Positions 5,489 through 24,241 of a stretch of DNA of 32,000 nucleotides are shown here, in pieces (position 1 is the stretch's first letter; each line of letters opens with the position of its first letter). The stretch is from Haloquadratum walsbyi C23 (GTDB lineage: Archaea > Halobacteriota > Halobacteria > Halobacteriales > Haloferacaceae): assembly GCF_000237865.1 (NCBI RefSeq), contig NC_017459.1, positions 1,080,001 through 1,112,000 of the forward strand, in the 5' to 3' direction. The notes beneath the pieces are model-generated. The model worked only from the letters and a program-made list of their open reading frames with translations. It was not told where the DNA came from and did no database searches. The position numbers were made by a program, and so were the translations under genes.

Positions 5489-6448
5489 ATGAGCGCACAG
5501 ACACAGTCTATTAGCCGTCAGAAGGCATGGGTGATGGCAGCACGCCCACAGACACTTCCAGCAGCGGCGGCTCCTATTCTTGTTGGGACTGGGGTTGCGA
5601 TTCATGACGGTGTTTTCGCCCCACTCCCAGCACTTGCTGCATTACTTGGTGCTGCTCTTATTCAGATTGGGACGAATTTTGCGAATGATTACTATGATGC
5701 ACTCAAGGGTGCAGACACCGCTGATCGCGAAGGATTCACCCGTGTGACCGCAGGTGGACTCATCGATCCCCCCGCAGTCAAGCGAGCGATGTATCTTACA
5801 TTTACAATTGCCATTCTTGTTGGTGCGACCCTTGTGTGGGTTGGTGGAATTCCGATCCTAATCGTTGGGCTTCTCTCCGTCGGCTCAGGAATTGCATACA
5901 CCGGTGGACCATACCCGCTTGGATATCATGGTCTTGGTGATGTGTTTGTGTTTGTCTTCTTTGGTCTCATTGCTGTGACTGGAACGTACTATGTTCAAGC
6001 AGCGGCACTTACTGCAGGCACATTTCCGCTTGGAATTCCCGCTGGGACAGTTTCATTGACGGCTATCGTTGCATCGCTGCCAATTGCTGCACTTTCGACA
6101 AACATTCTTGTCGTAAATAATGTTCGCGACCGTGATGAAGACGCAACGACGGGAAAGCGAACGCTCGCAGTTCGATATGGGTATACTTTCGCGCGCGCAG
6201 AGTTCATCACACTGTTGATACTTGCATACAGCGTCCCAATCTGGTTTCTGTCTCGCACAGCATACACACTTGCTGTGGGACTTCCACTTGTGACGCTACC
6301 AATTGCGCTATCACTTATGCATACTATATGCACCGAAACTGCCGGTGATATGCTCAACCCAACGCTTGAGCGGGTTGGAAAACTACTGGCTGGATATGCA
6401 CTCTTATTTAGTATTGGACTTGCTATCAAAACACTTCCAGTAGTATAA
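5489..6448 (+). CDS. menA: 1,4-dihydroxy-2-naphthoate polyprenyltransferase (UbiA family)
   Basis: Polytopic membrane protein with both UbiA Asp-rich motifs (NFANDYYDALKGAD and NNVRDRDEDATTGKRTLAV). It lies between menB and menC. Confidence 0.85.
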   Translation: MSAQTQSISRQKAWVMAARPQTLPAAAAPILVGTGVAIHDGVFAPLPALAALLGAALIQIGTNFANDYYDALKGADTADREGFTRVTAGGLIDPPAVKRAMYLTFTIAILVGATLVWVGGIPILIVGLLSVGSGIAYTGGPYPLGYHGLGDVFVFVFFGLIAVTGTYYVQAAALTAGTFPLGIPAGTVSLTAIVASLPIAALSTNILVVNNVRDRDEDATTGKRTLAVRYGYTFARAEFITLLILAYSVPIWFLSRTAYTLAVGLPLVTLPIALSLMHTICTETAGDMLNPTLERVGKLLAGYALLFSIGLAIKTLPVV

Positions 6449-7539: not shown

Positions 7540-7734
7540 TAATAATAATGTTGCGCAATCGATTCTATCAGTTAATTCGTATTTTGATAAGCTCAACGTC
7601 AAAATTCGGGGTTCTCGCCCTGTTCCGCCTATAGAAAATTAATATATGTTAGTTATTGTTTTGATTCAATCGCATGAGTTCATGTGAATATTCTTTAGAT
7701 ATCGTTATTTCGTCGGCTGGCAATATACGGAATA

Positions 7735-7848
7735 ATGGCTGATCCGACCCCAACACAACGCCGTCTTCTCATTGGATTATTTATGTTTGCGATATTCATC
7801 TTTATCGCCGGACTTGTTGTGGTTGCTTATCTCGCTGGAACATTCTAG
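7735..7848 (+). CDS. possible 37-aa single-pass membrane protein
   Basis: Too short for the ORF track. ATG 7735 to TAG 7846-7848 gives MADPTPTQRRLLIGLFMFAIFIFIAGLVVVAYLAGTF, a charged head followed by one clean hydrophobic helix. There is no other support. Confidence 0.3.
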   Translation: MADPTPTQRRLLIGLFMFAIFIFIAGLVVVAYLAGTF

Positions 7849-7877
7849 ATCTAATATATCCGCAACTCAACTCTCCA

Positions 7878-8720
7878 CTAGTCAGGTCGATGAGTCACTC
7901 CATCGCGGTTATCAGCGTTCATTCGTCGTAATGCTGCAGCTGCGTTTGAGGCATCATACCCGAAGTATACATTTGTGCTGTATGCATCTGCCACCTCCGT
8001 GGCGTGTATAAGATCATCAACATCGACATCAACTGCATATAATTCAACAGAAATGTCCACATCGCGTTCAATTGAATCGATTCGGCTTTGAAATCCCTTC
8101 ACAATCGTTTCTAGCCAGTATGTGGTTCCATAGTGAATGTCATATAATGGTATCACAAATTCATCAACATACTTAGCGATTCGTTCAACATTGATACCGC
8201 TGCGTTCAGAAAGATGCCCCGGGTATGGGTCTGGATATAATGTAAAATATGTCCGTCCTGGAATTAATGCCGTTGCTGTCTCAACAAATTCTGTAATAAT
8301 ATCATCGCGCCACGATTGCCACGTTTCTGCGGTGCTGTTATCAAACTGTCGTTGACATCGGTCGCACCTACAATATCCCTCTCGCGGAAACCCAACGTCA
8401 TCAAGTCGAACAGCATCATTTACCGCCGCGCTATCTTCGATGATCTCAAGTAAGCCATTTCGATATTTGTCATGCGTCGGACAAATATACCCCCAATCAA
8501 AATATGGCTGCTCTCGCGTCGCAAGGGTACCATCTTCATTAATTGGCACCAATTCTGGATCTGAGTTCGCCGCTGTATTATCACCAAAACAGGAGACCAT
8601 ATTGACTGCATCTGAGAGAGGTTCAGCAGCACGCCCACTCACATCTTTCACCTCATAAAATCCAATACCGAAGTCGTCCCACTCAATTTCTTCTTCGTTC
8701 CGCGTTACGACCCCATACAT
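7878..8720 (-). CDS. acidic cytoplasmic protein of unknown function with a CxCxxC cysteine cluster
   Basis: 280-aa ORF with typical halophilic acidic composition. It contains GYCRCDRCQRQF. I do not recognise the family. Confidence 0.6.
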   Translation of the reverse strand: MYGVVTRNEEEIEWDDFGIGFYEVKDVSGRAAEPLSDAVNMVSCFGDNTAANSDPELVPINEDGTLATREQPYFDWGYICPTHDKYRNGLLEIIEDSAAVNDAVRLDDVGFPREGYCRCDRCQRQFDNSTAETWQSWRDDIITEFVETATALIPGRTYFTLYPDPYPGHLSERSGINVERIAKYVDEFVIPLYDIHYGTTYWLETIVKGFQSRIDSIERDVDISVELYAVDVDVDDLIHATEVADAYSTNVYFGYDASNAAAALRRMNADNRDGVTHRPD

Positions 8721-8977
8721 ATATTTATCTCAGGATATCGCTGCGGTGCGTATCAGTCGTTCGGATACCAGTTCCATGATTCTACCGTTATTCTAAGATG
8801 ACAATCGACACTCGGGTGAGATTTTGATCTCAAATAAGCCACGATAAAAATAATAATCTAACATATCATACCAGCAAGCACACCGCAAAATGCTGTGAGT
8901 TGGTCATCTCTTCGTGTACGGTCTGATATCAATATTATCTGCAATCTCTCACATGTCGTTGTGCAACTACTGTGAAC

Positions 8978-9073
8978 CTAACTGGTACTATCACCGTCAG
9001 AACGACTCGCGAGGATTGTGTATGTCAATGCAATAACAGCAACTACGACAATAATTTTTGCTCGTCTCGACAT
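8978..9073 (-). CDS. possible 31-aa membrane peptide
   Basis: A reverse-strand ATG at 9073 gives MSRRAKIIVVVAVIALTYTILASRSDGDSTS. It lies in an otherwise empty 600-bp AT-rich spacer. The call rests on hydrophobicity only. Confidence 0.2.
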   Translation of the reverse strand: MSRRAKIIVVVAVIALTYTILASRSDGDSTS

Positions 9074-9333
9074 ATGTAATTGTCATATCGTTCTGATACA
9101 TATTAATGATTTAGTAATTTAGCCCCATTAGCGCATCAGGGGTTGTGGATGGAAAGCGCGTTATCGAAACAGGAAACCTCACGCTCAAGAAAACCGATAC
9201 AGCAGATGTAGCGGCTGAGTAGCATGGAGTCGTTCACAAGTACGTATCTTGGAATTTGTATATCAGTCCACCTGCGCACATCGGGATGCAACAGGGTATC
9301 TCGATACAACCAGTGGAATAACTGTATGATCAA

Positions 9334-9870
9334 TTATGCAACATCAAGATATGTTGGTACTTCGCTTTCACGCACAATCGATCCACAGTAATCACACTGT
9401 AGCCCTTCATCAAGGACAATAAAACGGGTGTTAATCGGTTCATTAGCGTTTGTAATACAGTTTCGATTGGGACAAAAAAGAAGTCCAGTGACCGCCGTCG
9501 GGCGCTCAATTCGTTTTTTATCGACAACCGCGTAATCTCGGATAATATTGATTGTTGCCTCAGGAGCAATCACCGCAAGTACGTCGACTTCAGATTGACT
9601 TAGCTCACGATCCTCGACTTTAACAATATCTTTTCTTCCCAAGCGGTCAGAAATAACATTCATACCGACAGAGACACCCTCACCGCTTGACCCATCAATC
9701 CCAAGAATGGCAAGAACATTTAGTGCTTCTCCAGCGGTAAGATGATCAATCACAGTCCCATCACGAATCTTCGAGACACGTAATTGTTGATCATCGATTT
9801 TCCTTGCTCTTGGCACGGCATCACTGACAGATTCCTTACTCTCCTTTTGATTTGGCTCACGATCGTTCAT
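9334..9870 (-). CDS. pyrI: aspartate carbamoyltransferase regulatory subunit
   Basis: Contains [15 protein letters not shown] and the C-terminal zinc site CPNRNCITN...CDYCG. Its ATG overlaps the pyrB TGA (ATGA on the minus strand at 9867-9870). Confidence 0.9.
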
Positions 9871-10784
9871 TTTGCCCTCCCAATCAATGCATCAAGCAGC
9901 GCCATTCGAACCGGTACCCCATTGTGTGCTTGCTCGAAATACGCCGCATGTTCGGTCGTATCCACCTCTGGCGCGATTTCATCAACTCGCGGGAGCGGGT
10001 GCATCACGGTCAAATTATCGTCTGCATGTGATAAAATATCAGTATCGACACGATATTGTCCAGCGACTCTTTGATATTCATTTTCATCTGGGAACCGCTC
10101 ACGCTGAATTCGTGTGACATATAAGACATCAAGTTCGGGAAGTATTGACTCAATATCTGTATGTTCACGCACCTGTGAGCCGGAGTCATGAAGATCATAT
10201 CGTATATTTCGAGGGAGCTGAAGACTTTCAGGGCTGATGAAATGCTGTCGAACATCAAAATTACTCAATGCTGCGGCAAGTGAGTGAACCGTGCGACCAT
10301 ATTTTAAATCACCAGCGATTCCAACGGTGATTTCATCGAGTCCGACATTCTCTCGCATTGTATACAAATCTAAGAGTGTTTGTGTCGGATGCTGTCCGGC
10401 ACCGTCACCGGCGTTGATGACAGGAATATCAACGAATTCAGCAGCTAGCTTCGCTGCCCCTTCAGATGGATGTCGCAACACGATGGCGTCAGCGTATCCG
10501 GCAATGACACGAACCGTATCAGCGAGTGTCTCGCCCTTCGATATTGATGAGTTGTCGACGCTACCCATATCGATTGTGCGTCCACCGAGTCGTTTCATTG
10601 CAGCATCGAAACTCATACGCGTTCGAGTGCTTGGCTCAAAAAAACATAATCCAAGTACCGTCCCACTATATTGCGCCTCCCACCCATCTGGATTCATTTC
10701 AATCGCCGCCGCCCGGTCAAGAATGGTCTCGATATCCTCCCGTGATAATTGTGTTGTGGAGAGTAAGTGGTCCTGATGCATCAT
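9867..10784 (-). CDS. pyrB: aspartate carbamoyltransferase catalytic subunit
   Basis: Motifs [26 protein letters not shown] and HPLPRVDEI are present. Confidence 0.92.
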
Positions 10785-10980
10785 ATATGCCAGCGTGTGG
10801 AACTAACTTCAATGGCTCGGGATGGATTATTTTCCTTTTTATCTCTCCAACATTGCTGATAATTTCATTTTTTGATTTATATAGCGTGATCGTTCACTCA
10901 CATGTTTCAATATGCATGCAAATCTACAGTGTGCGGTTTTTGTCTCGATATGCAGAGATCACAGTACTTCTCAAAATCCG

Positions 10981-12240
10981 CTATGGCCACGTACCTTGTC
11001 GGTCGTATGCCTCAATAACTCGCTCAATCGCAACGGCATATGCAGCTGTTCGGAAGTTCGGGAGTTCACGTGACTCATACGCTTCAACAAGATCGTCAAA
11101 TGCATTCGTGATGATTGTCTCCAGTTCTTGTTTGACTCGTGATTCTGCCCAGTAGAATTGCTGTCGGTTTTGTACCCACTCAAAGTACGATACAGTGACT
11201 CCTCCAGCGTTTGCAAGGACATCTGGGAACACAGCGACATCACGGTCAGTTAATACAGCATCTGCATCCGGCGTTAACGGTCCATTTGCTGCTTCGACAA
11301 TCACATCAGCGCTAACATCGACTGCGATTGACTCATCAATAGCGTTCTCCAGTGCTGCTGGAATTAATACATCAACATCAAGCGTCAATAGCTCGCGATT
11401 TGAGCGAACCTCTGTTTCTGCTCCTTCATACTCGATAACTGAGCCTGTTTTACGTTTATGTGACTTCACTGCACGCGTATCTAATCCTGTTGGGTCGTAG
11501 ATTGCACCTGATGAGTCTGAAACAGCAACAACAGTTGCCCCTTGATCTTCAAGTAGCTCAGCAGCGACAGATCCGGCGTTACCATATCCTTGTACCGCAA
11601 TAGTTGCATCCGCAATATCTCGTCCACGATATGTGAATGCCTCTCGAGCGGTCAACATGGTCGACCGACCTGTTGCTCTGACACGACCCGCACTGCCACC
11701 TGCTGAGAGTGACTTTCCGGTGACAGTTCCTGGTGCAGTTGTATTCTCAAGCGTTTCGTATGTGTCTTTAATCCAGTCCATCTCTCGCTGTCCGGTGTTC
11801 ACATCTGGGGCTGGGATATCAACATCTGGACCAATCAGTGGACGAAGTTCGGTCGCGAATGAACGCGTCAATCGTTCTAATTCTCCAGCGGAATATCTAC
11901 TTGGGTCAACAGCAATACCTCCCTTTCCACCGCCGTATGGAATATCCACAAGTGCGCATTTGTATACCATCCATCCTGAGAGTGCCTTTACCTCATCGCG
12001 TGTGACACCTGGATGATACCGAATCCCTCCCTTGTATGGTCCGCGATCGCCATTGAACTGCGATCGAAATGATTTGAAATGTTCGATTGTCCCGTCATCC
12101 ATCTCAACAGACAAATTCGCTTCAAGAACGCGTTCAGGTCGTTTTAACCGCTCGACAAGGTCACTACGAACATCAAGATATGCTGATGCATCATCGATTT
12201 GTTCTTGTAAGCTCTCAAAGGGATTCGCCTCGGATGTCAT
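10981..12240 (-). CDS. gdhA: glutamate dehydrogenase
   Basis: Motifs [19 protein letters not shown] and the dinucleotide fold VQGYGNAGS are present. Confidence 0.92.
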
Positions 12241-12353
12241 ATGTCAAATTCGTGGGTCACCTCGGTTAAGAATATCGACCAAATGTGCAGTCGTGAGCGC
12301 TGAGAGCACTAAACTGCACTATCCAATCACAAATCAAGTTAAATCAACTATTT

Positions 12354-13271
12354 TCACTCGGAATCGGCTTTCCCTGCGAGCGCACCTTCGAGTCGCTCAA
12401 CGAGTGATGGTGTTCCGACGTAGACCGGTGTTCGATCATGAATATCGTTTGACTCGACCGCAAGCAATGATTGCGAGCCATCTGAAGAGGCTCCACCGGC
12501 ACACTCAATGATATATCCGATAGGATATCCCTCAAATTGAACACGAAGTTTTCCGGATGGGGCGTTCGTGAGCGCTGGATACCCGAAAATCCCACCATAT
12601 GTAAGTACCTGATTCACATCACCAACCATTGCCCCTCCGTATCGGAGCTTCATCGATGTGTCAGACTCAATATCACTCACAAATGAATTGAAATCACGAG
12701 GCCAATTTGGCACACGTCCACCAAAGCCATACACTGTTGGCTCAGATGGGACGCGTACTTCCTGTTCAATCGGTTCATAACTCCCATCTTGATAAATAAT
12801 ATAATCTGCGACATTACCCTCGACGGCTGCAACCATTGTTGTTGTTGCGCCATAGAGAACGTATGCTGCAGCAACGAGATCAGACCCACGTGCTGGAAGT
12901 GGCGCATCGTATACCGCTGCGATTGTTCCCATTGCAGCATTTGATTTCAGGTTTGAGGATCCATCAAGTGGGTCGATACAGACCGACAGTCCTGACCCGG
13001 TATCATCAGCTGATGAACGTTCCTCGCTGGCGTATTCTCCAATTCCGTCAAGCGAGCCAAGACGATTACGAAGAAGTTCATCAGCAAATACATCCGCCTC
13101 CATTGGTGATTCCCCAGATGGATTTTCCTCATTAGTTTTGACCCGTCTCCCTGGAAGCCCGTTTCGAATCTCTGGAGCCGTGCGAGCAAGTATATCGAGG
13201 ATTGAGTTTATTATTTCATCATCTGTAAGTGAAAATGACTCGGACTCGGAATCAGCTGTTGACTCAGTCAT
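12354..13271 (-). CDS. fbp: fructose-1,6-bisphosphatase, class I
   Basis: Motifs [21 protein letters not shown] and GGIFGYP are present. The ORF is open up to 13388. The ATG at 13271 ([10 protein letters not shown]...) is the more plausible start because the upstream 39 codons are basic and Cys-rich. Confidence 0.8.
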
Positions 13272-13541
13272 GTGTGAGTCAATTGACGAAGCCATTCGGT
13301 TAACATCTCCGGTGAAACACAACTTTTGTGACATTGTTATCATACAACGTAGATGACGGGCGGCTGTGATGAATGCCTGCATCACCACCGACAGGATGAA
13401 TCTGAGAGCCCTGAGACACTTAGCACCGGTGACGACCCCGATTTCCTCTGTGTGATAAGATACTATGATGGTACTTTCTCATAATAGCTGACATCTGAAC
13501 TAGTCGGAATATACAGGTAGTTCGATAATTATTCATATTGT

Positions 13542-13853
13542 ATGGGATTGGGAACAACTGCGAAGAAATTACAAAAAGTAACCGAGATGGCAGAAAATGT
13601 CTATCAGCGATTAAATGAACTGCGAACGCAGATCTCAGAAATGCGGGAGACGACCGGTGAGACGCAAGCTGCTGTTGACCGTCTTGAGACCGAAACCGCT
13701 GAGATTCGAGCCCTTGTTGAAGCAATCGCTGATGAGGAGGATATCGACACTGAAACTATCATCGCAAACGCGCATATCACCGAAGCAGAAGCAAAAGACT
13801 CCGGATCTGAATCTGAATCTGAATCTAAAGTCACCTCAGACGACCCGCAATAA
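13542..13853 (+). CDS. small coiled-coil acidic protein conserved in haloarchaea (function unknown)
   Basis: The sequence MGLGTTAKKLQKVTEMAENVYQRLNELRTQISEMRETTGETQAAVDRLETETAEIRALVEAIA has a heptad-like pattern. A SESESES tail follows. Confidence 0.6.
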   Translation: MGLGTTAKKLQKVTEMAENVYQRLNELRTQISEMRETTGETQAAVDRLETETAEIRALVEAIADEEDIDTETIIANAHITEAEAKDSGSESESESKVTSDDPQ

Positions 13854-14064
13854 CTCGCTCTCTGCTAGACTGTGTATTGAGTTGAGATCCTCAGCAACAT
13901 GCGACCATTGGGGTGAGTCTTAAGGGCTATACACAAGCCTGTGAGTCTCTTTTCATTTCTGATGATATTGAAGACTATCTGACAACATATACTGGTCACC
14001 CGCGAATATGGCTTGTACCATCGAGAAGTGCACACAGAGTGTAGTCTTCATAGACATGTTTCAA

Positions 14065-14553
14065 TCAACCTAGTGCATCAGAATCAGCTTTTGTGTGCGC
14101 TTCATGTGCAACTTTGAGACAGCGGTCCTGGACAACATCAATTCCTGTTTTGCTTGCTTTTGATGCTGCTGCATTATCTCTAATCCCACGCTGCAACCAG
14201 ATGATTTCCGAATCACCAACCTGAGTATGTCGTTCAATCACCGACTCAACGATACTTGCTACCTCCTCGCTCGGCCGAAAAACATTGATAACATCGATTG
14301 TGTAGTCATCTGGAACAGCCGAGAGTGAATCATACGCTGTGGTGTCGAAAATCTGTTTTGCAAACGGATTAATCGGAATGATATCGTATCCGTATTTGAT
14401 AAGATACGCAGGGACGTCATGTGCTGGTTTCCCTGGCGACGTTGAACATCCAATAACAGCAATCGTTGTTGCTGTCAGCGCTTGTTCAATGAGTTTATCT
14501 GTCGACTCCTCTTTTATTGTCATTGATTGAACCTCCGTTTGTGACTGATGCAC
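14065..14553 (-). CDS. CoA-binding domain protein (YccU-like)
   Basis: IAVIGCSTSPGKPAHDVPAYLIKYGYDIIPINP...IDVINVFRPSE...IWLQRG matches the CoA_binding_2 pattern. The start could instead be the internal ATG at 14523. Confidence 0.75.
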   Translation of the reverse strand: MHQSQTEVQSMTIKEESTDKLIEQALTATTIAVIGCSTSPGKPAHDVPAYLIKYGYDIIPINPFAKQIFDTTAYDSLSAVPDDYTIDVINVFRPSEEVASIVESVIERHTQVGDSEIIWLQRGIRDNAAASKASKTGIDVVQDRCLKVAHEAHTKADSDALG

Positions 14554-14646
14554 ATATAGATATAATGATTAGTATATTCTCTCTTATTCTTCACTTTACT
14601 CAATTGTTGATTTGACGCTCGGACCGTTTTCTTGATTGTAGATGAC

Positions 14647-15510
14647 TCATATTCCAGCAACGACCACAGCCCGCCCAACAACAAATGCTGCTGCTGCGAC
14701 GAACATCCCGCGCTTTAGTAGCTGTTGCCCTTGTGTGGGGTTGTCAGGCGCCTGCCATACTCCAATCAACATAATCATATCTGCAGGCACGACCAAAGTA
14801 AGATACCATATCCCAAAAATGCCTATAACGTATGGCACTATGCTTGCGATGACAGCAGCTAAAAGCACTCCTGTTGCAACGCGATATGCAGGTGTCACTC
14901 CAATCACAATCGGTAGTGTCTGAAGTCCTTCTTCACGATCACCGTCAAGATCCTCAATATCTTTAATAATCTCTCTGGTCGCTGTTGCGAGAGCAGCCAA
15001 AATAAACAGAACAACGACACCAAAATCGGTTATCCGACCAATCGCTGCGGCTCCAAATAAAAATGTTGAACCAGTAAGATATGCAACAATCGCATTTCCA
15101 ACACCAGGAAGACCCTTGAATAACTCGGTATATGCGACTAATGCGAGTAGATTCATCAGCGCAAGCACAATCGCAATCAGCGGAAGCACCGACGTTGAGA
15201 CGACTGCAGCAACAAACAAGAATCCACTGAATACAATAGCTCCTCGCTCACTGATAGCTCCACGAGGAATTGGTCTCATTGGGCGATTAATTTTGTCAAT
15301 TGCCCGATCGAAATAGTCATTAATCGCATTTCCAGCCGCAGTTGCGAATATCGTTGCCGCAACAGCACCGGTTACATGAGCAGTTGTCACTGCGAACCCT
15401 CCGGCGACGAATGCCCCAGTAAATGTGAGGACACCCGCTGCGACCGCGTTCCCAATCCGCATCAGGTCAATAGCCCCACGGATTGTCCCCCGGACATGAG
15501 TATCCATCAA
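14647..15510 (-). CDS. UbiA-family prenyltransferase, most likely digeranylgeranylglyceryl phosphate synthase
   Basis: Polytopic membrane protein with NAINDYFDRAIDKINRPMRPIPRG and a second Asp-rich motif, IKDIEDLDGDREEG. Confidence 0.8.
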   Translation of the reverse strand: MMDTHVRGTIRGAIDLMRIGNAVAAGVLTFTGAFVAGGFAVTTAHVTGAVAATIFATAAGNAINDYFDRAIDKINRPMRPIPRGAISERGAIVFSGFLFVAAVVSTSVLPLIAIVLALMNLLALVAYTELFKGLPGVGNAIVAYLTGSTFLFGAAAIGRITDFGVVVLFILAALATATREIIKDIEDLDGDREEGLQTLPIVIGVTPAYRVATGVLLAAVIASIVPYVIGIFGIWYLTLVVPADMIMLIGVWQAPDNPTQGQQLLKRGMFVAAAAFVVGRAVVVAGI

Positions 15511-15709
15511 TTTAATTTGCTATAATCGAGAAAATAAGTGACCCGAAATCATTTCTCGCCCTAACCAATATCTGTACTTGCAGACGATTTCGATAGCTCA
15601 GATTCACTGTATCGGTAATGATCACTGTATATTCGCTTGACCTCACGAACTATTCTTAATTGAATTCAGCTGTTTTCTTGATGAGTATTATTGACATCCT
15701 CCTCCGCGT

Positions 15710-15821
15710 ATAGTACTCCATGAAACATTTTGAACCATCGGTCCTACGCAACAGTATCAGCAGCTACTCTATGACAAGATTTTGAATTGAATTCCTCAAT
15801 AAGTTTTCAGGAGCACCAAAC
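15710..15821. repeat. 112-nt repeat element, copy 1, clamped by the 9-bp inverted repeat TCCTCCGCG (15700-15708) / CGCGGAGGA (15821-15829)
   Basis: Identical to 30258-30369 apart from 15799 A/G and 15819 A/G (constant offset 14548). Its own ends are imperfect inverted repeats: GTACTCCATGAAAC at 15713-15726 and GTTTTCAGGAGCAC at 15803-15816. Confidence 0.9.
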
Positions 15822-15825
15822 GCGG

Positions 15826-16360
15826 AGGAATCCTGAGCCTGAGCGTGAATGGTGGAGATTGCAGGTTTGCAGCTCCACCGAACCCCGGCACGGTGAGAGT
15901 TCGTGTGGGGTTCACGTACTGTGGCGAGTCGAGTGGGACTGCTGGGACTGCTGGGAGTGCCACATCTCAGCCCCCGGTACTCCTATCTCCCATCGTGTTC
16001 GGACTCCCGGAGTTGGTTGTGCCGGAGAATCCGGCAGATTTCGACGGCTCGGACTTACTTTCTGCGGTGTTTGCAAGCAGTCGGGCACTGCAACTGCAAC
16101 TGCATCGGTTCAGTATATTATATGAACCGACCGTTCACCTGACTGATTCCGATTCCTGTCTGAGTGCTTGGGGCGGACAGGCCGCCCTCGTCGGAGTGAC
16201 CGGAATCGCCCTGCTCTGTTCCCGATCTGATTCCTATCTACACATAGGCTTGCCTGTCACTTCAAGCTCCGGAGTCCCAAGTCTCAGCGTGGCTATTGCA
16301 GCGCAGATTTCCTCCGGGGTGTCGAATTCATCCTGTGGCTGGACCCGCAGGTATTCTTCT
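15826..16360. other. GC-rich orphan segment: decayed foreign gene remnant or structured RNA
   Basis: There is no TAA, TAG or TGA on the + strand from 15849 to 16122, so all three + frames are open. Perfect hairpins: TGCCGGA-GAA-TCCGGCA at 16020-16036 and CGGTTCA...TGAACCG at 16106-16128. Tandem repeats: GGGACTGCT at 15935-15955 and CTGCAA at 16088-16104. One minus frame reads QEEYLRVQPQDEFDTPEEICAAIATLRLGTPELEV but has 3 stops and no start. Confidence 0.4.
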
Positions 16361-16508
16361 TGACCCTATATAAGCAATAATACGATACGCACTTTCTCTG
16401 AGCAAGCTTTCCGAGATATGTTGTGTTCGTTCAATTATACGCAACGGTACAGCAGTGATGTCATTCACCGATGCAATGTATTATGCGTGTTGCACTAGTG
16501 ATACACAT

Positions 16509-16979
16509 ATGACAATATCTACTGGCGACTCTGTGACGATTGAGTATACTGCTCGGACAGGCGATGGTACTGTTTTCGACACTTCACGTCAGTCAATTGC
16601 AACAAAAACGGGGCTCACTGAGACACAACCCGACCGCGAGTATGAAGCATTTACATTCGAAGTTGGAGGCGGAATGGTCATCGAAGGACTTGATGAGGCA
16701 TTGATTGGACTTGAGGAGGGGGCTCGTTCCACTGTTACCGTCTCACCGAAGAGAGCATACGGTGAATGGAAACAAAGCCGCGTTCGCGAATATGATGCAG
16801 ATAATGTTGAGATAGCTGGTGGTACCATTGAGAAGGGTTCGCGTGTCAAATCTGATGATGGCACCGTTGCAAAAATCACACACGCTGGTCCGGATACCGT
16901 CCGAGTTGATCATAATAATCCACTTGCTGGCAATACGGTCCAATTTGAGGTTGAAATCGTTAGTGTAACCACCGCATGA
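16509..16979 (+). CDS. FKBP-type peptidyl-prolyl cis-trans isomerase (SlyD-like, no obvious metal-binding tail)
   Basis: Motifs GDSVTIEYTARTGDGTVFDTS and FEVGGGMVIEGLDEALIGLEEG are present, followed by an insert-in-flap region. The ORF is open from 16455, but the ATG at 16509 fits the family N-terminus. Confidence 0.85.
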   Translation: MTISTGDSVTIEYTARTGDGTVFDTSRQSIATKTGLTETQPDREYEAFTFEVGGGMVIEGLDEALIGLEEGARSTVTVSPKRAYGEWKQSRVREYDADNVEIAGGTIEKGSRVKSDDGTVAKITHAGPDTVRVDHNNPLAGNTVQFEVEIVSVTTA

Positions 16980-17259
16980 CATCCTCTGTGCCGCGAACGG
17001 CAGGATTCTCTCGCTATTAAAGATAAATTTGCTATTTCGAATCCAATTTCCAAGCATTCAATAAGCGTGTCCTCTATCGCTAAAAGATATTTGTGGCTGG
17101 ATATCACTACGCTGCACATGTTATTACAACATAGCATTACGTCCAGATCTAGCATCTATCTGATTAAATTGATAATATTCTTCATAATCTACACGGTTTT
17201 ATCATGATAAAAACTGATTGTGTATCCTGTTTGTGATGAAATAAGAAACACAGTAAAAA

Positions 17260-17335
17260 CGGGCCGGGAGGGATTTGAACCCTCGATCCTCTGGTTAAAA
17301 GCCAGATGCTTTGGGCCAATCTAAGCTACCAGCCC
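17260..17335 (-). tRNA. tRNA-Lys (anticodon UUU)
   Basis: Folded by hand. Acceptor GGGCUGG/CCGGCCC, D stem GCUU/AAGC, anticodon stem UCUGG/CCAGA with loop CUUUUAA, T arm GAGGG-UUCAAAU-CCCUC, discriminator G. No CCA is encoded. Confidence 0.9.
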
Positions 17336-17785
17336 ATATTGGATTCCTGGTAACTCAGGTATAAAAGGGCTTCAATTTATCATCTTGAATTCAACCGATT
17401 GAGACATGTGTATTATTACCACTATGTAAACTACCTCACCATACTTCTTGACGTTCCGCGCCTCGGTGCTTGAACTCGAGGGTTCCCCCTCAAAAATGCT
17501 GGCGAGTAACGCTATAATTGGTTTGAGATTGTCCGTTTGCTTGTTTTCAGAGTTATATTGCCGATCTTCAATGTAGAAATGTAAGATTGCCATACGAATC
17601 CACTATCAGTCAATCAATAACTTCACCCTTCAGATGCTCCGTCTTCACAGGTGGAAATCGACTCATCTGACATTCATTATCTCTCTGTCATACTGATTGA
17701 ATTCAGGAGATAATATGGCTCAGAAGCGCAGAGTAATAAAAAGAGAACAAGATTTAATCTTTTATCGAACAAGTCAACAAACACC

Positions 17786-18091
17786 ATGATAACTAAACTC
17801 GACGAAGAGGTGAATATGCTGAATCGTCACGTTGAGATCCTAAGGTTGGTCATTGATAATGAACCGATTGGCATTGTCACAATGTCAAATGAAACCGGAT
17901 ATGCGCATCACAAAGTTCGATATTCTCTCCGTATTCTTGAAGAGGAGAATCTCATCGACCCGTCCAGTCAGGGTGCAATTACGACTGAACAAACAAATGA
18001 ATTCGTTGAGAAACTGGATACCAGGCTTGATGAAGTTGAGAGCAAATTAATTGAGATGAAGATCGAAAACCCAGTGAATATTGAAAGTTAG
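17786..18091 (+). CDS. small HTH-domain transcription regulator conserved in haloarchaea
   Basis: RHVEILRLVIDNEPIGIVTMSNETGYAHHKVRYSLRILEEENLIDPSSQGAITT fits a winged-helix pattern, followed by a C-terminal coiled coil. Confidence 0.65.
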   Translation: MITKLDEEVNMLNRHVEILRLVIDNEPIGIVTMSNETGYAHHKVRYSLRILEEENLIDPSSQGAITTEQTNEFVEKLDTRLDEVESKLIEMKIENPVNIES

Positions 18092-18358
18092 GATTTACCG
18101 ATAGTTTCGTTTGAATACACTTTCTCCACTCGATTCCTCTGTCCGGCATGCTGATAGACAAGAGTGACAAATCGTAGTTAAATATCTCTGCGAACAATAT
18201 ATGCACTGTTGAATCCTGAGTGAAGCTGCGGTACCGAAGCAAAAAGTTAGCTCATAACGATAGTATCGCGAAGCTGGACGAAAGGCATGGGCGGTGCGAT
18301 GAGAAACAAACATAAAGGCCGATACATTGTAATTAGTTGAAGCCGAAAAACAACAACC

Positions 18359-18433
18359 GGGCGCTTAGCTCAGTTTGGACAGAGTGCTTGGCTTCGGACC
18401 AAGCTGTCGCGGGTTCAAATCCTGCAGCGCCCA
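18359..18433 (+). tRNA. tRNA-Arg (anticodon UCG)
   Basis: Folded by hand. Acceptor GGGCGCU/AGCGCCC, D stem GCUC/GAGU, anticodon stem CUUGG/CCAAG with loop CUUCGGA, T arm GCGGG-UUCAAAU-CCUGC, discriminator A. Confidence 0.9.
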
Positions 18434-18815
18434 TAGCCGCTCTCCTTATTCAGAATTCGCAGTACGGAAGCCGGTTGTTTATAAATACTGTCGACCTCCT
18501 AACTGCTGATTTCAGCCCGCTGCGGGTCGCACCCTTTCGCCGTCTTGGATTTCGCGAGATACGAGAGCCCGTAGGCTTATAATATATAAGCTTACAGACA
18601 AGCTTTTCAGAGATTGTACTGCTTGTTTTCGGTGTTCGTGACCCGCCTGCGTGTGCCGCTAAAACGGGTCTGTGCTCCCCCGCCCCTTACTGTTGACCCC
18701 GTTTTCTCAACCGAGAGAGCCGCATAGATCGATTCTTCTCTTCCTCGGGTCGCTTTCCCCACGGAGCACATTCCTCACAAGATAGCGGTCGCTACGCCGT
18801 CTGCTAGTTTTGGGT

Positions 18816-19340
18816 CTATACGATGTCGTTTTCTTCCTGATACCGGCGATAGTATGCCTTCTCGACGGTGCGGAGGTCAAAGTCGTCGGGGTTCCGGTCG
18901 CGGAGTTCCTCCAGTAACGTGGTGTAGTCACTACGTCGGAATCCACGGTCTTCTCCGAATAGCACCTCTATGATATAGCGGTCACCCACTGCGTAGGTTG
19001 TCGGATCGTAGAACGCCAGCACGACAGTCGCTGTCGCGTCACCGATGCCGGGGATCGAAGCGAGGGTCTGTAACTGGATCTTCGGGTCGTCCGGGAGGAG
19101 GGCCGCCTCCGTTACTCGTCGGACAAATCCCTTTGGGGTCGACCGCATCATTTCGATATGGCGATCCCTCCGACCAGGCTGGTTATCTAGTTTCCACTCC
19201 ACTACGCTTGCCAGTTCGTCCTGCGTGAGATACCCCTTCTCGTTGAGAGCCCCCCCAACTTCCTTTTCGATTTCCTGATGTTCGTCTGGGTAGCCGTCGC
19301 TATATCGCTCGCTGTAAGTCCGTATCTCGTCGGTATTCAT
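18816..19340 (-). CDS. helix-hairpin-helix protein, possibly OGG-fold/DNA-glycosylase-like
   Basis: 174-aa ORF. It has the HhH-like LASIPGIGDATATVVLAF followed by DPTTYAVGDRY. It is the first gene of the GC-rich region. The family assignment is from memory only. Confidence 0.6.
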   Translation of the reverse strand: MNTDEIRTYSERYSDGYPDEHQEIEKEVGGALNEKGYLTQDELASVVEWKLDNQPGRRDRHIEMMRSTPKGFVRRVTEAALLPDDPKIQLQTLASIPGIGDATATVVLAFYDPTTYAVGDRYIIEVLFGEDRGFRRSDYTTLLEELRDRNPDDFDLRTVEKAYYRRYQEENDIV

Positions 19341-19436
19341 ACCACCTATTACAGCCCTGCGTGTGATAGGTCTCCTGATACGGGGCTATCCGTCTCCGAC
19401 GCAGGTGTTATTGGTATACCGTTCCGAAGATTTTGT

Positions 19437-19571
19437 ATGCCTGAACGTCCCGACGAGGACGCAAGTGCCGCAGAGATAGCGCGGTGGATGGAGGAGGACT
19501 TCGGTGAAGCCCTCGCTGAAGGAATCGAGCAGGCCACCGAAGAAGACGAAGGCGACGAGCACGACGAGTGA
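19437..19571 (+). CDS. possible 44-aa highly acidic protein
   Basis: The internal ATG of ORF 19278..19571 gives MPERPDEDASAAEIARWMEEDFGEALAEGIEQATEEDEGDEHDE. It is divergent from 18816..19340. Confidence 0.3.
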   Translation: MPERPDEDASAAEIARWMEEDFGEALAEGIEQATEEDEGDEHDE

Positions 19572-19738
19572 GCCGGCACGACGCGCTACGCCTGTATGGG
19601 GTTGTGTAGATCTGGCTCTTGTGGACGTAACCCCCACACATTAGACACCACAAAGACCGCAAGCAGACTGACCTCCAAACCGTCGTTTAATCCTTTTCAG
19701 GTGGATTGAAGTAAACGGCGGCAGTTATATCTTGAATA

Positions 19739-21209
19739 ATGAATGGTGAGGCAGTCAAGAACTACGTCGGGCAGTCTCAGACGCTGTTGGAGGCCTCACC
19801 GCAGATGGACGAGGAGAACACGAAAGTAAAAATTATTCAGCCATTTGTAGACCTTCTCGGGTGGAACTTCTACTCAACCGAGGTACAAGTTGAATATACC
19901 GTTCAGATGGGGACGCAGTCGTCGAAAGTCGATTAGGCTCTGATGGTGGGAGATACACCAGTAGTGTTTATCGAGGCAAAGCCCGCACGGTCGGACCTCA
20001 GCGATGGAAACGTTCGACAAATTCAGAGTTATATGCGACAAGACTTTTCCGTCGACTGGGGCGTCTTGACCACTGTCTCTTACCCACAAAACGAGTCAGG
20101 ATTTTAGCGGAACGGGATCGGCGAGCACGACTGAGCACGACTGAAATCCTTTGTATCTACAGTTTCAGCATCTCCTTGGAACAATTGTAGTGGAGTTGAT
20201 TACCGGCGTTTTATAACCCCCACAGCCGATATCACTATCTGAATCGCTTCTCTCCTCGATTTTTTGCGTTCAAATACCTCTGAAAGCGTCTGAAATGTCC
20301 GGTTACGACTCCACGAACTTATGGGTAAGAGACAGGTCTTGACCAACGGGAAAGAGTTCGAGATTCTCAGCGTCACCGGTGACCACAGGCAAGACGGAGA
20401 AACCTCGATTGTCACTTTCGACTTGGACGAGATGGCGGATAACCCCGATATTCTGGAGATACTGACGAAAGACGCCATTCAGTCGGGGAGAGCCGACGAC
20501 ATAGCACGGCAACTCACACAAACGAACCGGGCTATCAGTCGATTAACTGACCGCGAAACCCCGATTGCCGAACGACTTACCGACGTACTTCAGGACGAAC
20601 TGGATGAGACGCCACTCGATCTCGAAGAACAGAGCCTCGACTTCGTCAACGAACTACGACACACCCTCCGCGAACAGCGTGAGTTTATTGGAGAGTCAAC
20701 TGACGACAGGGACAACATATCAGGTGACAACGTATCTGAGGATGACCCCGATACCGAAGAAGGCGAGATTGAGCCCGTCGAGAATAACGTCGCCGGGACG
20801 ATGCGACGTACCGACATAGAAGTTGGCGAGGAAGCACAAGTGGCTGTCTTTCCAACCCGTGAGTCCGGCCTCCCGTTCCTGTTTGAGAACAACGCTTGGG
20901 GGGTTCATTCGTATCGGGCGCGATTTCGATTATGTGGCGATGTATGTCACACAAGACGCTCGTGAGGTACAGTATTTTGCTACAGTCCGCGATGTCGTTG
21001 CACCGGAGGATGCTGAACTCGTCCGTGAGCCAACTGAGTACCTCGATAGAGACGAGATTGCTGATAACAAAATGGTAGTGAGGTTCAAAGCCGACAGCCT
21101 CTATCGACTCGAAGATCCGATCCCATACGAGACTAAATACCCCCAAAGCCACCGATATACGACGCTCGGAGAGTTCAGAACAGCCGAAACAACCAACGAT
21201 ATACTGTAA
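19739..21209 (+). pseudogene. HsdR_N-like (PD-(D/E)xK) nuclease-domain gene, inactivated three times
   Basis: The N-terminus EENTKVKIIQPFVDLLGWNF...SSKVD*ALMVGDTPVVFIEAKP...DWGVLT/NGKEFEIL matches the type I restriction R-subunit N-terminal domain pattern. Three lesions are visible. (1) TAG at 19934-19936 where the family has Tyr (DYAL). (2) A 264-bp insertion at 20072-20335. (3) A +1 frameshift at the G6 run 20898-20903, where WGFIRIGRDFDYVAMYV continues in ORF 20823..21209. Confidence 0.75.
20072..20335. mobile_element. 264-bp MITE with IS4/IS50-like termini and a 9-bp target duplication
   Basis: The terminal inverted repeats are CTGTCTCTTACCCA (20073-20086) and TGGGTAAGAGACAG (20322-20335). 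The direct repeat GTCTTGACC flanks it at 20063-20071 and 20336-20344. There is no ORF inside. Removing the element plus one duplication copy restores DWGVLTNGKEFEIL in frame. Confidence 0.85.
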
Positions 21210-21343
21210 GGATCAGCAACTCCGGACGGTGGCTGACACTACAAAGACTGCTGAGACCCGCATAGATATCGATAATCCTGAAACCGTCCGCGAACTCACT
21301 CGCACTGAGCCGACGAGAACGGTATATAAACTATTAGAAAGGC

Positions 21344-21553
21344 TTGGTACTTTCACACCGTCTCTCGAGCACAGTAGTAGCGCGAGTTGCCGGCGTAGTA
21401 ATGCGGGTAATGCAAAAACAAGACCTCGTAACAGCGACTAACGCGTCAGAACGAACCGTTCGGCGAATCCTAACAGACTTACACAGTCGAGGATACGCGG
21501 AAGAAGATATGAAGCCGGGACCATACCCGACGGCATATCGGTGGAGTTACTGA
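21344..21553 (+). CDS. small winged-helix DNA-binding protein
   Basis: DLVTATNASERTVRRILTDLHSRGYAEE reads as a recognition helix plus wing. It has a TTG start. It may be a frameshifted continuation of ORF 21229..21441 (MADTTKTAETRIDIDNPETVRELTRTEPTRTVYKLLER). Confidence 0.5.
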   Translation: MVLSHRLSSTVVARVAGVVMRVMQKQDLVTATNASERTVRRILTDLHSRGYAEEDMKPGPYPTAYRWSY

Positions 21554-21620
21554 CGGGAGAAAGGGTGGCCAAATTCGCTTATATATTAGATGGGATTCTG
21601 GACACCCTTCACAACTATTG

Positions 21621-21842
21621 TCACACTTCATAGTCACTGTCCTCTGTTGACGATATGAACCGTTCTCCGTTGTCGCCGTACTGTTCGAAGCCGTGTTCTT
21701 CGGCAACGTCCCGGACGAGGTCGGCGTCGTCTGGGTCGAGCAGGTCGAAGGTGACACGCATACTCCGTTCGGATCTTTCCGCGCTGATGTTCGCTACGTC
21801 GGCGCCCAAGGCCGCGAGTGCGTTCATAATATCTTCACTCAT
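21621..21842 (-). CDS. small acidic protein, unknown function
   Basis: 73-aa ORF with halophilic composition (MSEDIMNALAALGADVANISAERSERSMRVTFDLLDPDDADLVRDVAEEHGFEQ). Confidence 0.45.
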   Translation of the reverse strand: MSEDIMNALAALGADVANISAERSERSMRVTFDLLDPDDADLVRDVAEEHGFEQYGDNGERFISSTEDSDYEV

Positions 21843-21903: not shown

Positions 21904-22479
21904 GTGGGTGAAACACATCGGTATGCTATGACACGGACAACCTTGGTTTTCGGGAAACTGTTGACCGAACCTGGGGAAGACTGGGGCGTGTCTGTGTCAT
22001 ACCTCACGTACGGGCTGACTGTCGTCTTTCTCGGGCTGTATATCTTCGGAACGTTTGAGTATGCAGACCAATACTCGTCGGTGTTACCTGCAGTCGAGTT
22101 CGGTTTGGCTGTGTTCTTTCTGTTTGAATACATATCTCGAATAGATTATGCCGATGATACGTGGGCGGAACTGAGGAGTCCATACGCGATTGCCGACCTC
22201 TTGGCCGTTATCCCCGCGCTGTTGATTTTCATCTTTCCCGCAGCCGGACAACTGGCTGTTCTGCGAAGCGTACAGATTCTGCGAGTGTTCCGATTCTTGC
22301 GACTTGGTCTCGAAAACAGGAGAGTATTCGATTATTCACTCACAGCCAGACAAGTGGTCGTTGCGGAGGCTATGACGGCCATCGCGGTTATCGTAAATCT
22401 ACACGCGGGAATCGTATACGAACTCGAAAAGGGCGTGAATCCACAGTTTCAGAACTTTGCCGATGCGTTCTACTACTCT
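21904..22479 (+). pseudogene. voltage-gated-type K+ channel, 5' part (S1-S5 and pore-helix start), cut by an IS
   Basis: Several hydrophobic helices are present. The S4-like LRSVQILRVFRFLRL has a basic residue at every third position. The frame ends ...QNFADAFYYS exactly at the IS left end. The likely start is the ATG at 21928. Confidence 0.8.
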
Positions 22480-22553
22480 CGGTACTTCACGAACGGTGTA
22501 ATGGGCCGAATTAATCCGGTGAATTAACCGGAAAGAAATGTCTGGTTCTGGAT

Positions 22554-22988
22554 GTGTTAGACCTTACAGACCCAGACGGGTACCTTTCGGCATCAGAAGT
22601 CAAAGATACCGCGGAAGCGGTTATTTCTCCGCTCCCACTGCCGGGTGTCGAGGGGAGCCCCCTCGACCCCGGCGATATCTGGCCCGTTGTTATCTTTGCC
22701 TGCGTGAACGAAACCTCAATCTGGGAAACCTGCAACGAACACGATGGAACACCCTGCGATGATACTGTTCTGGCGTGGCTTCACACACTCAATCGTGGGT
22801 GGCTCGAAGTCATTGCTAACCTCCAGCTTAGCCGCCTCGCTATGACGATTCTCGACGCAGAGCAGTCGAGAATCGTCTCTATCGACTTCATCGACAACCC
22901 CTATCACGGCGACCATTACGACGAGGAAGGAGAACTCTGCTCGATGGCTCCGAAAGATGGCACGACTAATGGCTTAGAGAACTTTTGA
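22554..22988 (+). pseudogene. transposase, N-terminal fragment
   Basis: ...RIVSIDFIDNPYHGDHYDEEGELCSMAPKDGTT carries the first catalytic-Asp region. After codon 22965-22967 the frame runs into unrelated sequence and stops. Confidence 0.75.
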
Positions 22989-23264
22989 AAACTAAGACGT
23001 AGCAAGAAAATAACAGACTAAGACAGCTGTGCACCAAGTGCACAGCGATTTAACAGCGTTTTCGGATCACTATTACTCTACAGGAATCTTCTTTTTCTGA
23101 GTTACCGGGCTCCAAAACCAGCCGGGAGAAATCTTGATACGGTAATTTTCACCGCTCACGTATAAACCACAAATTCACCGTACCACGCTCCCTGAGAATA
23201 ACGAATAGAGACCGGTTACCTCCAGAATTGAGAATTAATTTGCAAATCGCGTCGCGGTCATTAC
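22968..23264. other. ~300-bp AT-richer non-coding insert interrupting the transposase gene (boundaries approximate)
   Basis: It separates KDGTT from CHRYCTAYVV, which I expect to be nearly contiguous in this transposase type. It contains the perfect hairpin GCTGTGCAC-CAA-GTGCACAGC at 23016-23036. I found no clear terminal repeats or target duplication. Confidence 0.45.
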
Positions 23265-23312
23265 ACGTGCCATCGATACTGTACAGCGTACGTCGTTTCC
23301 AACGGAAAACCG

Positions 23313-24029
23313 GTGACGCTGGCGATGACGTACGTTCGTAACGACGAGACAGAGGCTGACGCGGTCGAGCGCGTGCTCGCCCGCGTCGAGAACTACCCCT
23401 TTGAGATCGAGTTGCTGCTTGCTGACAGCGGCTTCTTCAATGAGCGTGCGATTCGTCGGTCACGAGAAATCGCTGCCACAGTCGTTCACGTTCCAAAGAA
23501 AGGAGATCGCATGAAAGAGAAACTCGACGTGCACAAGTCGTACATGACGACCTACCGCATGTACAAAGACAGCGAGCGGGAACTCCGTGTCCCGCTCGCG
23601 GTCTCTGTCTCCTACCAGAACGGTGATCGGAACAAACACGGCGAGGTTGTCCATGGCTACGTGGCTTGCGGCGTTACCGATCATACCGCCAAACAGGTCG
23701 AACGGATCTATCGGAAACGATCAGGCATCGAGACGACCTACCGGCTGATTCGGCAGGCACGAGGGGTCACGACAACTCGTGACCCCATCGTTCGGTTTGC
23801 CTTCATGCTCGTGGCTGCTATTCTGGAGAACCTCTGGTTGGTGCTTCGCTGGGCCGTCGTCGCCCGCCCGCAGCGGGGCGGGCGCGAGTTACCTGAAGAG
23901 TTCACGTTCTCTGTGTTTTGCGATTGGATTCGGAGGGAGTTGGAGGAGCAGTTGGAGCGACGGTGGAAGATCAAGATGAACAGGAACGGGACAGGTATTC
24001 CACCGTCATACCAAACGGCCGCGGGCTGA
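23313..24029 (+). pseudogene. transposase, C-terminal fragment
   Basis: The DDE region LLLADSGFFNERAI and the signature YRKRSGIETTYRLIRQ are present. The frame is open from 23232, and recognisable sequence (TCHRYCTAYVVSNGKPVTLAMTYV) begins at about 23265. Confidence 0.8.
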
Positions 24030-24241
24030 CCACGGTCAGCCCTGGCCAGTCTGCCTCTGTATGAGCAACAGCTCTCTTCGAGAAGTAGTCGAAAACGGGG
24101 GAAACGAGCTATTTGAGTGCGTACTCTGTTCGAAGTGGAAAGCAACTCACTGATTTTTGTAACTCACCCGAGAAACCATATAGAATATGACCATTCGGCC
24201 GTCACTGTCGCTGGAAGTTTCGACTTATTCGTGAAGTACCG

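Follow-up and report, generated by a model that had tools for sequence, protein, structure and literature searches.

The SMR-A class of small mobile repeats was described in 2011 by Dyall-Smith et al. (PLoS One 6:e20968; PMC3119063) and comprises three families, HqIRS42, HqIRS43 and HqIRS55. HqIRS43 is listed in Table S8 of that paper with a length of 107-109 bp, a terminal repeat of 16/23, 26 copies in Haloquadratum walsbyi C23 and 36 copies in HBSQ001 (29 and 41 for HqIRS42, 54 and 51 for HqIRS55); the authors found no transposon with related ends and termed the mobilisation of these repeats 'enigmatic' (PMC3119063). Within the literature searched, the elements are mentioned solely in this original description. 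Here we analyse a stretch of 32,000 nucleotides of H. walsbyi C23 (NC_017459.1, positions 1,080,001 to 1,112,000, forward strand; about 48% G+C), called the window throughout, that contains two nearly identical copies of a short repeat, each enclosed by an inverted repeat. Both copies are very probably HqIRS43, a 108-bp non-coding mobile repeat of H. walsbyi of the SMR-A class, and each is inserted in the loop of a near-terminal hairpin of an IS200/IS605-type derivative (PATE). The element is already catalogued and its identity is in itself not new.

An earlier reading of the window, made from the sequence only, had claimed a 112-nt element that occurs twice, in direct orientation and 14548 bp apart. 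Comparison of positions 15710-15821 with 30258-30369 reproduced this: the two are identical at 110/112 positions, with mismatches at 15799 and 15819, and a repeat search of the window returned one family of 119 nt with 97% identity and a spacing of 14548 nt. The boundaries of the 108-nt element were set from empty hairpins, for copy 1 from a paralogous hairpin with the loop TAAA at L029:12011 (identifiers starting with L denote the sequences compared), and for copy 1 also from the comparison of 10 sequence variants at more than 10 sites:

15711 to 15818, plus strand: HqIRS43 copy 1, 108 nt, TAGTACTCC...GGAGCACCA, chromosome ~1,095,711-1,095,818, covariance-model match of 137 bits
30259 to 30366, plus strand: HqIRS43 copy 2, 108 nt, chromosome ~1,110,259-1,110,366, covariance-model match of 134.9 bits
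15711 to 15733, plus strand: left terminal inverted repeat of copy 1, 16/23 match to the reverse complement of the right end (by eye)
15796 to 15818, plus strand: right terminal inverted repeat of copy 1, ending in ...TCAATAAGTTTTCAGGAGCACCA

The conserved ends of the element are TAGTACTCC ... GGAGYACYA. The only open reading frame (ORF) noticed by eye has 21 codons and is not conserved in a relative of the element from Halovenus (see below), which has kept the nine terminal bases TAGTACTCC.

The route to the name of the element was a TnpB remnant that adjoins one metagenomic copy and led to a 99% identical copy in HBSQ001, at L120:10401-10508, which corresponds to AM180088.1 473202-473309. 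Exactly these coordinates are annotated in Table S5 (row 102) as 'INSERT_REPEAT 473202-473309, 108, in_transposon, HqIRS43', absent from C23 (PMC3119063), and together with the length of 108 and the terminal repeat of 16/23 this identifies the element of the window as HqIRS43. Among the 10 variants, 9/10 are 108 nt long and 1/10 has 109 nt. An exact 22-mer of the element is also present in HBSQ001. The site of copy 1 is occupied in HBSQ001 too; copy 2 lies inside a block common to the window and HBSQ001 (Table S5 row 225), and its locus is also present in the metagenome contigs L013, L021 and L024. The class is given inconsistently in that paper: HqIRS42 and HqIRS43 are 'SMR-B' in Table S8 but SMR-A in the main text (PMC3119063); apparently the two labels were swapped in the supplement. 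No evidence contradicting the identity as HqIRS43 was met.

The claim that each copy is enclosed by a different perfect 9-bp inverted repeat was confirmed for both copies (TCCTCCGCG/CGCGGAGGA and GCCTCGGGG/CCCCGAGGC), and the flanks beyond are unrelated between the copies. For a random junction pair, the chance that an inverted repeat of 8 bp or more lies no further than 7 nt from both junctions is 0.0011 (about 1/1000). These 'clamps' are the halves of two different host hairpins and not element sequence:

15700 to 15708, no strand: left arm of the 3'-terminal hairpin of an HqIRS56-type PATE, TCCTCCGCG, the left 'clamp' of copy 1
15821 to 15829, no strand: right arm of the same HqIRS56-type hairpin, CGCGGAGGA, the right 'clamp' of copy 1
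15691 to 16368, minus strand: HqIRS56-type PATE hosting copy 1, a non-coding IS200/IS605-type derivative, 678 bp with and 570 bp without the insert
30245 to 30253, no strand: left arm of the hairpin of an HqIRS46/ISHwa23-type PATE, GCCTCGGGG, the left 'clamp' of copy 2
30369 to 30377, no strand: right arm of the same HqIRS46/ISHwa23-type hairpin, CCCCGAGGC, the right 'clamp' of copy 2
30227 to 30384, plus strand: terminal-only (core-deleted) HqIRS46/ISHwa23-type PATE hosting copy 2, 50 nt without the insert

In the PATE of copy 1, TTGACATCC... at the left is the 3' end and ...CCCTA^TATAA at the right is the 5' end (carets mark boundaries or junctions). Reverse-complemented, the published HqIRS56/ISHwa21 3' end, ...GGGATTCCTCCGCGTGAACGCGGAGGAGGATGTCAA (Table S9), gives the context of this copy, TTGACATCCTCCTCCGCG-TA[108 nt]AA-CGCGGAGGAATCC. 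J07HQW1, a related genome, lacks the whole PATE in this intergenic region. The context of copy 2, TCTAC-AGGCGGAACAGACCGAGTGCCTCGGGGCTTAA[108 nt]GACCCCGAGGCGGTTCAC, has the architecture of the ~50-bp 'terminal-only' HqIRS46/ISHwa23 PATE of Table S9, whose 'core del' sequence used for comparison reads TCTAC AGATTAACAGGCAGAGTGCCTCGGGGCTTGACCCCGAGGTACTTCAC (PMC3119063); the target pentanucleotide TCTAC is found at 30222-30226, directly before the PATE. These hosts also provide an ordinary explanation for the composition boundary at both copies, which had been taken as a sign of a link to integration or recombination: AT-rich DNA meets GC-rich DNA there because each copy is positioned 20-32 nt inside the end of a PATE, with host DNA on one side, and the GC-rich, ORF-poor segment 15826-16360 is the body of the HqIRS56-type PATE (15691-16368). 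The PATE of copy 2 is only about 50 bp long.

Empty hairpins, including those in related sequences that the sequence-only reading had proposed to look for, were found as both paralogous and orthologous sites. At the paralogous site L029:12011, the hairpin reads TTGATATTCTCCTCCGCG-TAAA-CGTGGAGGAATCC, versus TA[108 nt]AA when filled, which fixes the insertion at TA^AA. Five further empty hairpins of the type CCTCGGGG-loop-CCCCGAGG were found. Paralogues of the copy 2 type are empty, with the loop CTTGA or TCAAG, at L008:1056, L019:10645, L019:10984 and L020:4218. An orthologous empty site is provided by the contigs L133 and L135, which carry the C23-type allele of a TnpB remnant without exactly the 108 nt: the remnant has 136 amino acids in the empty allele and 140 amino acids where the reading frame enters the element. 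The length difference between the filled and the empty orthologous alleles is exactly 108 nt, with no duplicated bases. This agrees with the absence of a direct target duplication at either copy of the window, as had been claimed. The view that the repeat is mobile, small and non-autonomous and has palindromes or hairpin loops as its insertion targets is therefore borne out, and it agrees with the SMR-A class of 2011.

A scan of metagenomes, together with look-ups of exact proteins, yielded the 10 sequence variants at more than 10 distinct sites, of which those labelled A to H are considered here. The palindromic stems of the targets are CGCG at site A, GGGG/CCCC at site B and CCACGGGTCA/TGACCCGTGG at site C. 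At site G and at HBSQ001 1,084,6xx the target is the HqIRS56 5' hairpin CCACGG...CCGTGG; at site H the hairpin is long and imperfect and lies at the 3' end of an IS1341-type TnpB remnant, where the copy adjoins the C-terminal remnant of TnpB. Published HqIRS56/ISHwa21 and HqIRS46 ends (Table S9) recur in the flanks of sites A, B, G, E and F, and by our own comparison the flanks of site C are similar to the published HqIRS44/ISNph6 5' end. Self-complementary flanks, another check that had been suggested, are present at 7/7 of the examined sites that are neither hybrid nor ambiguous (A, B, C, G, H, HBSQ001 1,084,6xx and Halovenus), and at each clear palindromic site the insertion point is at the dyad centre or at most 1.5 nt away from it. 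The bases at the junctions have nothing in common (GTA^AAC, TAA^GAC, CAG^GTG, CTT^CAG, CAA^AGG, CTG^AAG, CCG^GGG). One identical 108-nt variant is found in four unrelated hairpin types, and this must therefore be true transposition and not only conversion within one PATE family. Copies are found in both orientations relative to the host element. In H. walsbyi the hairpins that are hit are nearly always the near-terminal palindromes of IS200/IS605-type transposons or PATEs; of the HqIRS56 copies, 9/19 and 12/23 are hit (PMC3119063).

Some observations on these and related hairpins were made in passing. Opposite window 28747-28751, HBSQ001 has a 647-bp HqIRS56 PATE (1084550-1085196; L125:444-1088) that is absent from the window and holds a diverged HqIRS43 copy in its 5' hairpin; this PATE apparently moved, or was lost, together with its HqIRS43 passenger. 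The loops of HqIRS46-type 3' hairpins (CCTCGGGG...CCCCGAGG) contain short tandem expansions of variable length with GATACT/GAGACT-like units, at window 31685-31716, L013:7208-7266, L008:673-723 and L015:4388-4444. The hairpin tip seems to be a general hotspot of sequence gain, and not for HqIRS43 alone. A lone fragment of about 30 nt resembling an HqIRS46-type 5' end lies in reverse orientation at window 7597-7635 (TCTAT AGGCGGAACAGGGCGAGAACCCCGAA) and has no complete hairpin. At 15830-15850, just inside the PATE beside copy 1, there is a hexanucleotide repeat GAGCGT/CCTGAG of about 2 to 5 units; the number of units differs among contigs and strains, and the repeat is at the same place in L005, L007, L009, L017 and L027. 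The neighbouring gene on one side of copy 1 encodes DGGGP synthase, which falls into a 90%-identity cluster together with the proteins of HBSQ001 and C23. Ten public metagenome contigs (among L002-L011, L119 and L121; ENA, MEGAHIT assemblies) share this DGGGP-synthase side and continue into seven different right flanks. L119 (1-10509 against 10400-20423) is 99.7% identical to HBSQ001 at ~473 kb on one side and 98.9% identical to the window on the other, joined at the 108-nt repeat. Misjoining at the repeat during assembly probably accounts for the divergent right flanks, although some may stem from real recombinants.

A relative of HqIRS43 with 72% identity is found outside Haloquadratum, on a plasmid of Halovenus salina (NZ_CP112975.1 19496-19603; L112, L114), a member of the Haloarculaceae; it is repeated at 106217-106324, inside a large segmental duplication. 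The ends of the Halovenus copy are perfect (TAGTACTCC/GGAGTACTA, terminal repeat 9/9), and the internal blocks that it has in common with HqIRS43 include AACATTTTGAAC, GAATTGA and TCTCAATA. It occupies the middle of a perfect 11-bp palindrome, ACTCTCTCACC-G^G-GGTGAGAGAGT, and lies 25 nt upstream of an IS1634-family transposase gene; a repeat shared between this copy and the ends of the adjacent IS1634-family element was looked for and not found. This is a first sign that the HqIRS43 repeat family is present outside Haloquadratum. A search of 1.49 Mb with a covariance model based on 8 variants (80 other archaeal loci, mostly from haloarchaea, the J07HQW1 locus and the Halovenus plasmid) found only the duplicated Halovenus copy, and neither a BLAST search of a phage collection nor a pattern scan of viral contigs revealed any HqIRS43 copies.

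The insertion of HqIRS43 is precise: it occurs at the hairpin tip, with zero duplication or loss of target bases and in both orientations. The element has been active recently, and there are recombination products between copies. From the analysis of the insertion sites we tentatively propose a model, to which we give less than even weight, in which HqIRS43 would move by single-strand joining into hairpin loops. The target would be recognised by its structure rather than by its sequence, and one strand of the element would enter the single-stranded loop of a hairpin, formed on a cruciform or in single-stranded DNA, and be joined there. The reaction could be a single-strand cut-and-paste or copy-and-paste resembling the chemistry of IS200/IS605 elements, the enzyme would act in trans, and the copies may later serve as substrates of homologous recombination. 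Single-strand joining into a loop would account for both the zero duplication and the two orientations.

Several points weigh against this model. Canonical TnpA cleaves beside hairpins and not in their loops, and no candidate for the enzyme that moves HqIRS43 was found. Sites D, E and F have no flanking palindrome. The flanks of sites E and F consist of the 5' half-hairpin of an HqIRS56-type PATE on one side and the 3' half-hairpin on the other, and the simplest reading is that both hairpins had been hit by a copy and the PATE core between the two copies was then lost by deletion; site D, with no palindrome, falls outside this account. At site H, three transitions, all of them within 5 nt of the junction, separate the filled allele (L120:10395-10515) from the empty one (L133:1895-1910), and more than 100 nt around it are otherwise identical; the transitions count against a clean insertion, which does not predict them, and could be an insertion footprint, the result of deamination of the exposed loop, or co-conversion. 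The original table lists cases in which 5 nt are 'replaced' by 108-111 nt (PMC3119063). C23 has no intact IS200-type TnpA, yet has strain-specific HqIRS43 insertions (PMC3119063), which argues against a simple dependence on TnpA. 

A longer, autonomous element with the ends TRGTRCTCC/GGAGYACYA was sought in 2.1 Mb of sequence, and chance pairs were all that came up. The ORF at 18816-19340 was considered as a candidate mobiliser and rejected: its faint match to the IS110 family is merely a helix-hairpin-helix motif.

The earlier suggestion that the whole unit could fold into a long rod is correct in that the element ends pair (GTACTCCATGAAAC with GTTTTCAGGAGCAC, 10/14 Watson-Crick pairs, and by eye more if minus-strand G-T pairs are counted) and that the host hairpin is stable, but the 108-nt element by itself is not an unusually stable fold: the rod is the host hairpin plus a terminal stem of 9-14 bp. 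Very high stability was obtained for the empty hairpins when reconstituted (z -4.8 and -3.9; -11 kcal/mol with z -4.8 for the host of copy 1), but for the 108-nt element alone, taken as single-stranded DNA, the stability does not exceed that of shuffled sequence (z +1.1 and -0.6). A consensus fold computed from 8 variants has only -9.35 kcal/mol and consists of the terminal stem only, with three compensatory pairs that all come from one sequence.

Among the alternatives, spread mainly by homologous recombination or gene conversion between paralogous PATEs after breakage at the hairpin tip, in a homing-like manner and with no dedicated transposase, is rather unlikely but the most probable. It would fit the targets, which are multi-copy, near-identical PATE ends, the large fraction of HqIRS56 copies hit (the 9/19 and 12/23 above) and the clustering of three substitutions at the junction of site H, a possible co-conversion. 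However, the same 108-nt variant is present in at least four hairpin families without common flanks, so that at least one homology-independent insertion per family is required, and the palindrome in Halovenus is unrelated. The probability left by single-strand joining and by such homing-like spread goes to an unknown mechanism. Far less probable is an ordinary MITE (a miniature transposable element with inverted repeats) of a Tc1/IS630-like DDE transposon with TA target duplication, of the form TA-GTACTCC...GGAGTAC-TA. The Halovenus copy and several H. walsbyi variants do read TA...TA around a perfect GTACTCC/GGAGTAC repeat, but there are empty hairpins without TA at the insertion point (CTT^CAGG, CTG^AAG, CCT^CTGG), and at four different sites an identical variant ends on the right in CA and not in TA, so these bases travel with the element. 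Neither the 108-nt difference between the orthologous alleles, free of duplicated bases, nor the lack of any transposon with related ends in the original study (PMC3119063) fits such an element, and the fixed-length target-site duplication of a canonical MITE is absent.

A structured small RNA gene present in two copies, its closing helix kept by compensatory changes, was the other explanation offered by the sequence-only reading, and we consider it very improbable. Folded as minus-strand RNA, copy 1 together with its flanks is stable (-50.3 kcal/mol, z -4.9), and by eye the A-to-G differences between the element ends can be read as minus-strand G-U pairs. Nevertheless, the 'closing helix' pre-exists as a host DNA hairpin: it is present without the element at many loci and belongs to the ends of PATEs and IS605 elements. 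Besides the two tRNAs there is no Rfam match in the window, either at the gathering threshold or at E<=10, covariation among the 8 variants is weak, the interior has no robust conserved fold, the element alone as DNA folds no better than shuffled sequence, and the copies are found in both orientations relative to the host element; neither a covariation-backed structure nor a curated match thus marks it as a structured non-coding RNA family. (Bulge-helix-bulge geometry, as in archaeal introns, was looked for at the junctions and rejected: the folds are a near-continuous helix with small symmetric internal loops and no staggered 3-nt bulges.) Least probable of all, to the point of being negligible, is that the copies are the left and right attachment sites of an integrase-bearing island. 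The idea draws on two direct repeats 14.5 kb apart that bracket two tRNA genes, strain-variable DNA and a supposed integrase remnant at 30.4-31.7 kb. Pfam scans of 30380-31760 revealed neither integrase nor TnpB, and in none of the six frames does the supposed remnant have a Pfam domain. The same 108 nt are present at no fewer than 10 unrelated loci and in HBSQ001, with a relative on the Halovenus plasmid, and both copies of the window are in blocks common to C23 and HBSQ001 (over 4650-17186, which includes copy 1, window and HBSQ001 have an identity of 98.4%). Between the copies, the strain-specific segments (18764-21694, 22480-24241 and 28747-28751) have other boundaries, unrelated to the copies (Table S5 rows 220-224). 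They agree base for base with the C23-specific features of that table: 18764-21694 is the 2931-bp indel 1098764-1101694 of Table S5, and the Table S5 block 1104242-1108746 starts at window 24242. There is thus not the picture expected of attachment sites, exactly two copies at the borders of one variable island beside an integrase, and the proposed link of the element to integration falls. Recombination between HqIRS43 copies in general is plausible; for the pair in the window there is no sign of it having happened.

The window contains further mobile DNA around the copies. The C23-specific segment 22480-24241 (1102480-1104241 in Table S5) is ISHwa13, with a DDE_Tnp_1 domain in ORF 23313-24029, and interrupts an ion-transport (ion-channel) gene, ORF 21904-22527. 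The region 30385-31700, next to copy 2, looks like a patchwork of degraded mobile elements, and two more IS605-type end motifs were noted there, at 31506-31521 in reverse and at 31701-31716 in forward orientation.

Fifteen years after the SMR-A repeats were described, the remaining interest lies in the mechanism of their mobilisation and in the relative outside the genus. It is possible, though we would not call it probable, that HqIRS43 and the SMR-A class move by an undescribed chemistry, a structure-directed joining into the hairpin tip with zero duplication, catalysed by an HUH-type single-strand nuclease/ligase (encoded by the host or by an IS) or by a new enzyme. If so, the enzyme would be shared across haloarchaeal families, given the relative on the Halovenus plasmid, and copies in right-end hairpins would be located in the source region of the TnpB guide RNA and could modulate RNA-guided TnpB activity. 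Should insertion at the hairpin tip with zero duplication prove a distinct chemistry, it would represent a new way of moving DNA, and IS200/IS605-TnpB elements, of current interest as the ancestors of Cas12 nucleases, would have in HqIRS43 a natural antagonist or passenger. On the practical side, contigs of public saltern metagenomes are probably misjoined at the 108-nt repeats, which can also drive deletions inside PATEs.

Insertion sequences that target palindromes are known: IS1397 and ISKpn1 of the IS3 family insert in BIME/REP loops, and members of IS110/IS1111 insert in REP or attC sites. IS110-family elements are RNA-guided and cause no or minimal duplication and IS1397 causes a duplication of 3-4 bp; all are autonomous and have sequence-specific targets. 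HqIRS43 resembles them in that it inserts inside or beside pre-existing palindromic repeats, but differs in being a non-coding element of 108 bp that targets hairpins of unrelated sequence. With canonical MITEs (for example HqIRS35-39) it has in common that it is short, non-coding and multi-copy, has terminal inverted repeats and depends on functions in trans; unlike HqIRS43, MITEs share their ends with a known transposon and have a target duplication of 5-9 bp (Table S8, PMC3119063). PATEs and IS200/IS605 elements, the physical targets of HqIRS43, likewise lack a target duplication, for which a single-strand mechanism (as in the 'peel and paste' transposition by TnpA) would account in both, and depend on DNA hairpins, but they have subterminal hairpins in place of terminal inverted repeats and insert 3' of a fixed 4-5 nt (PMC3119063), whereas HqIRS43 has terminal repeats, varying bases at the insertion point with no target sequence consensus, and inserts in the loop, which sets it outside this group. 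The other two SMR-A families, HqIRS42 and HqIRS55, are alike in their size of ~110 bp, prominent terminal repeats, lack of target duplication and target preference, and unlike HqIRS43 in having, on the word of the original paper, no sequence similarity to it (PMC3119063). Between HqIRS43 as described in 2011 and the copies of the window there is no difference: coordinates, length and terminal repeat are the same, target duplication is absent and insertion is in near-terminal palindromes. To that description we add the Halovenus relative, an insertion point that coincides with the dyad centre wherever the case is clear, and an interior that is not unusually stable.

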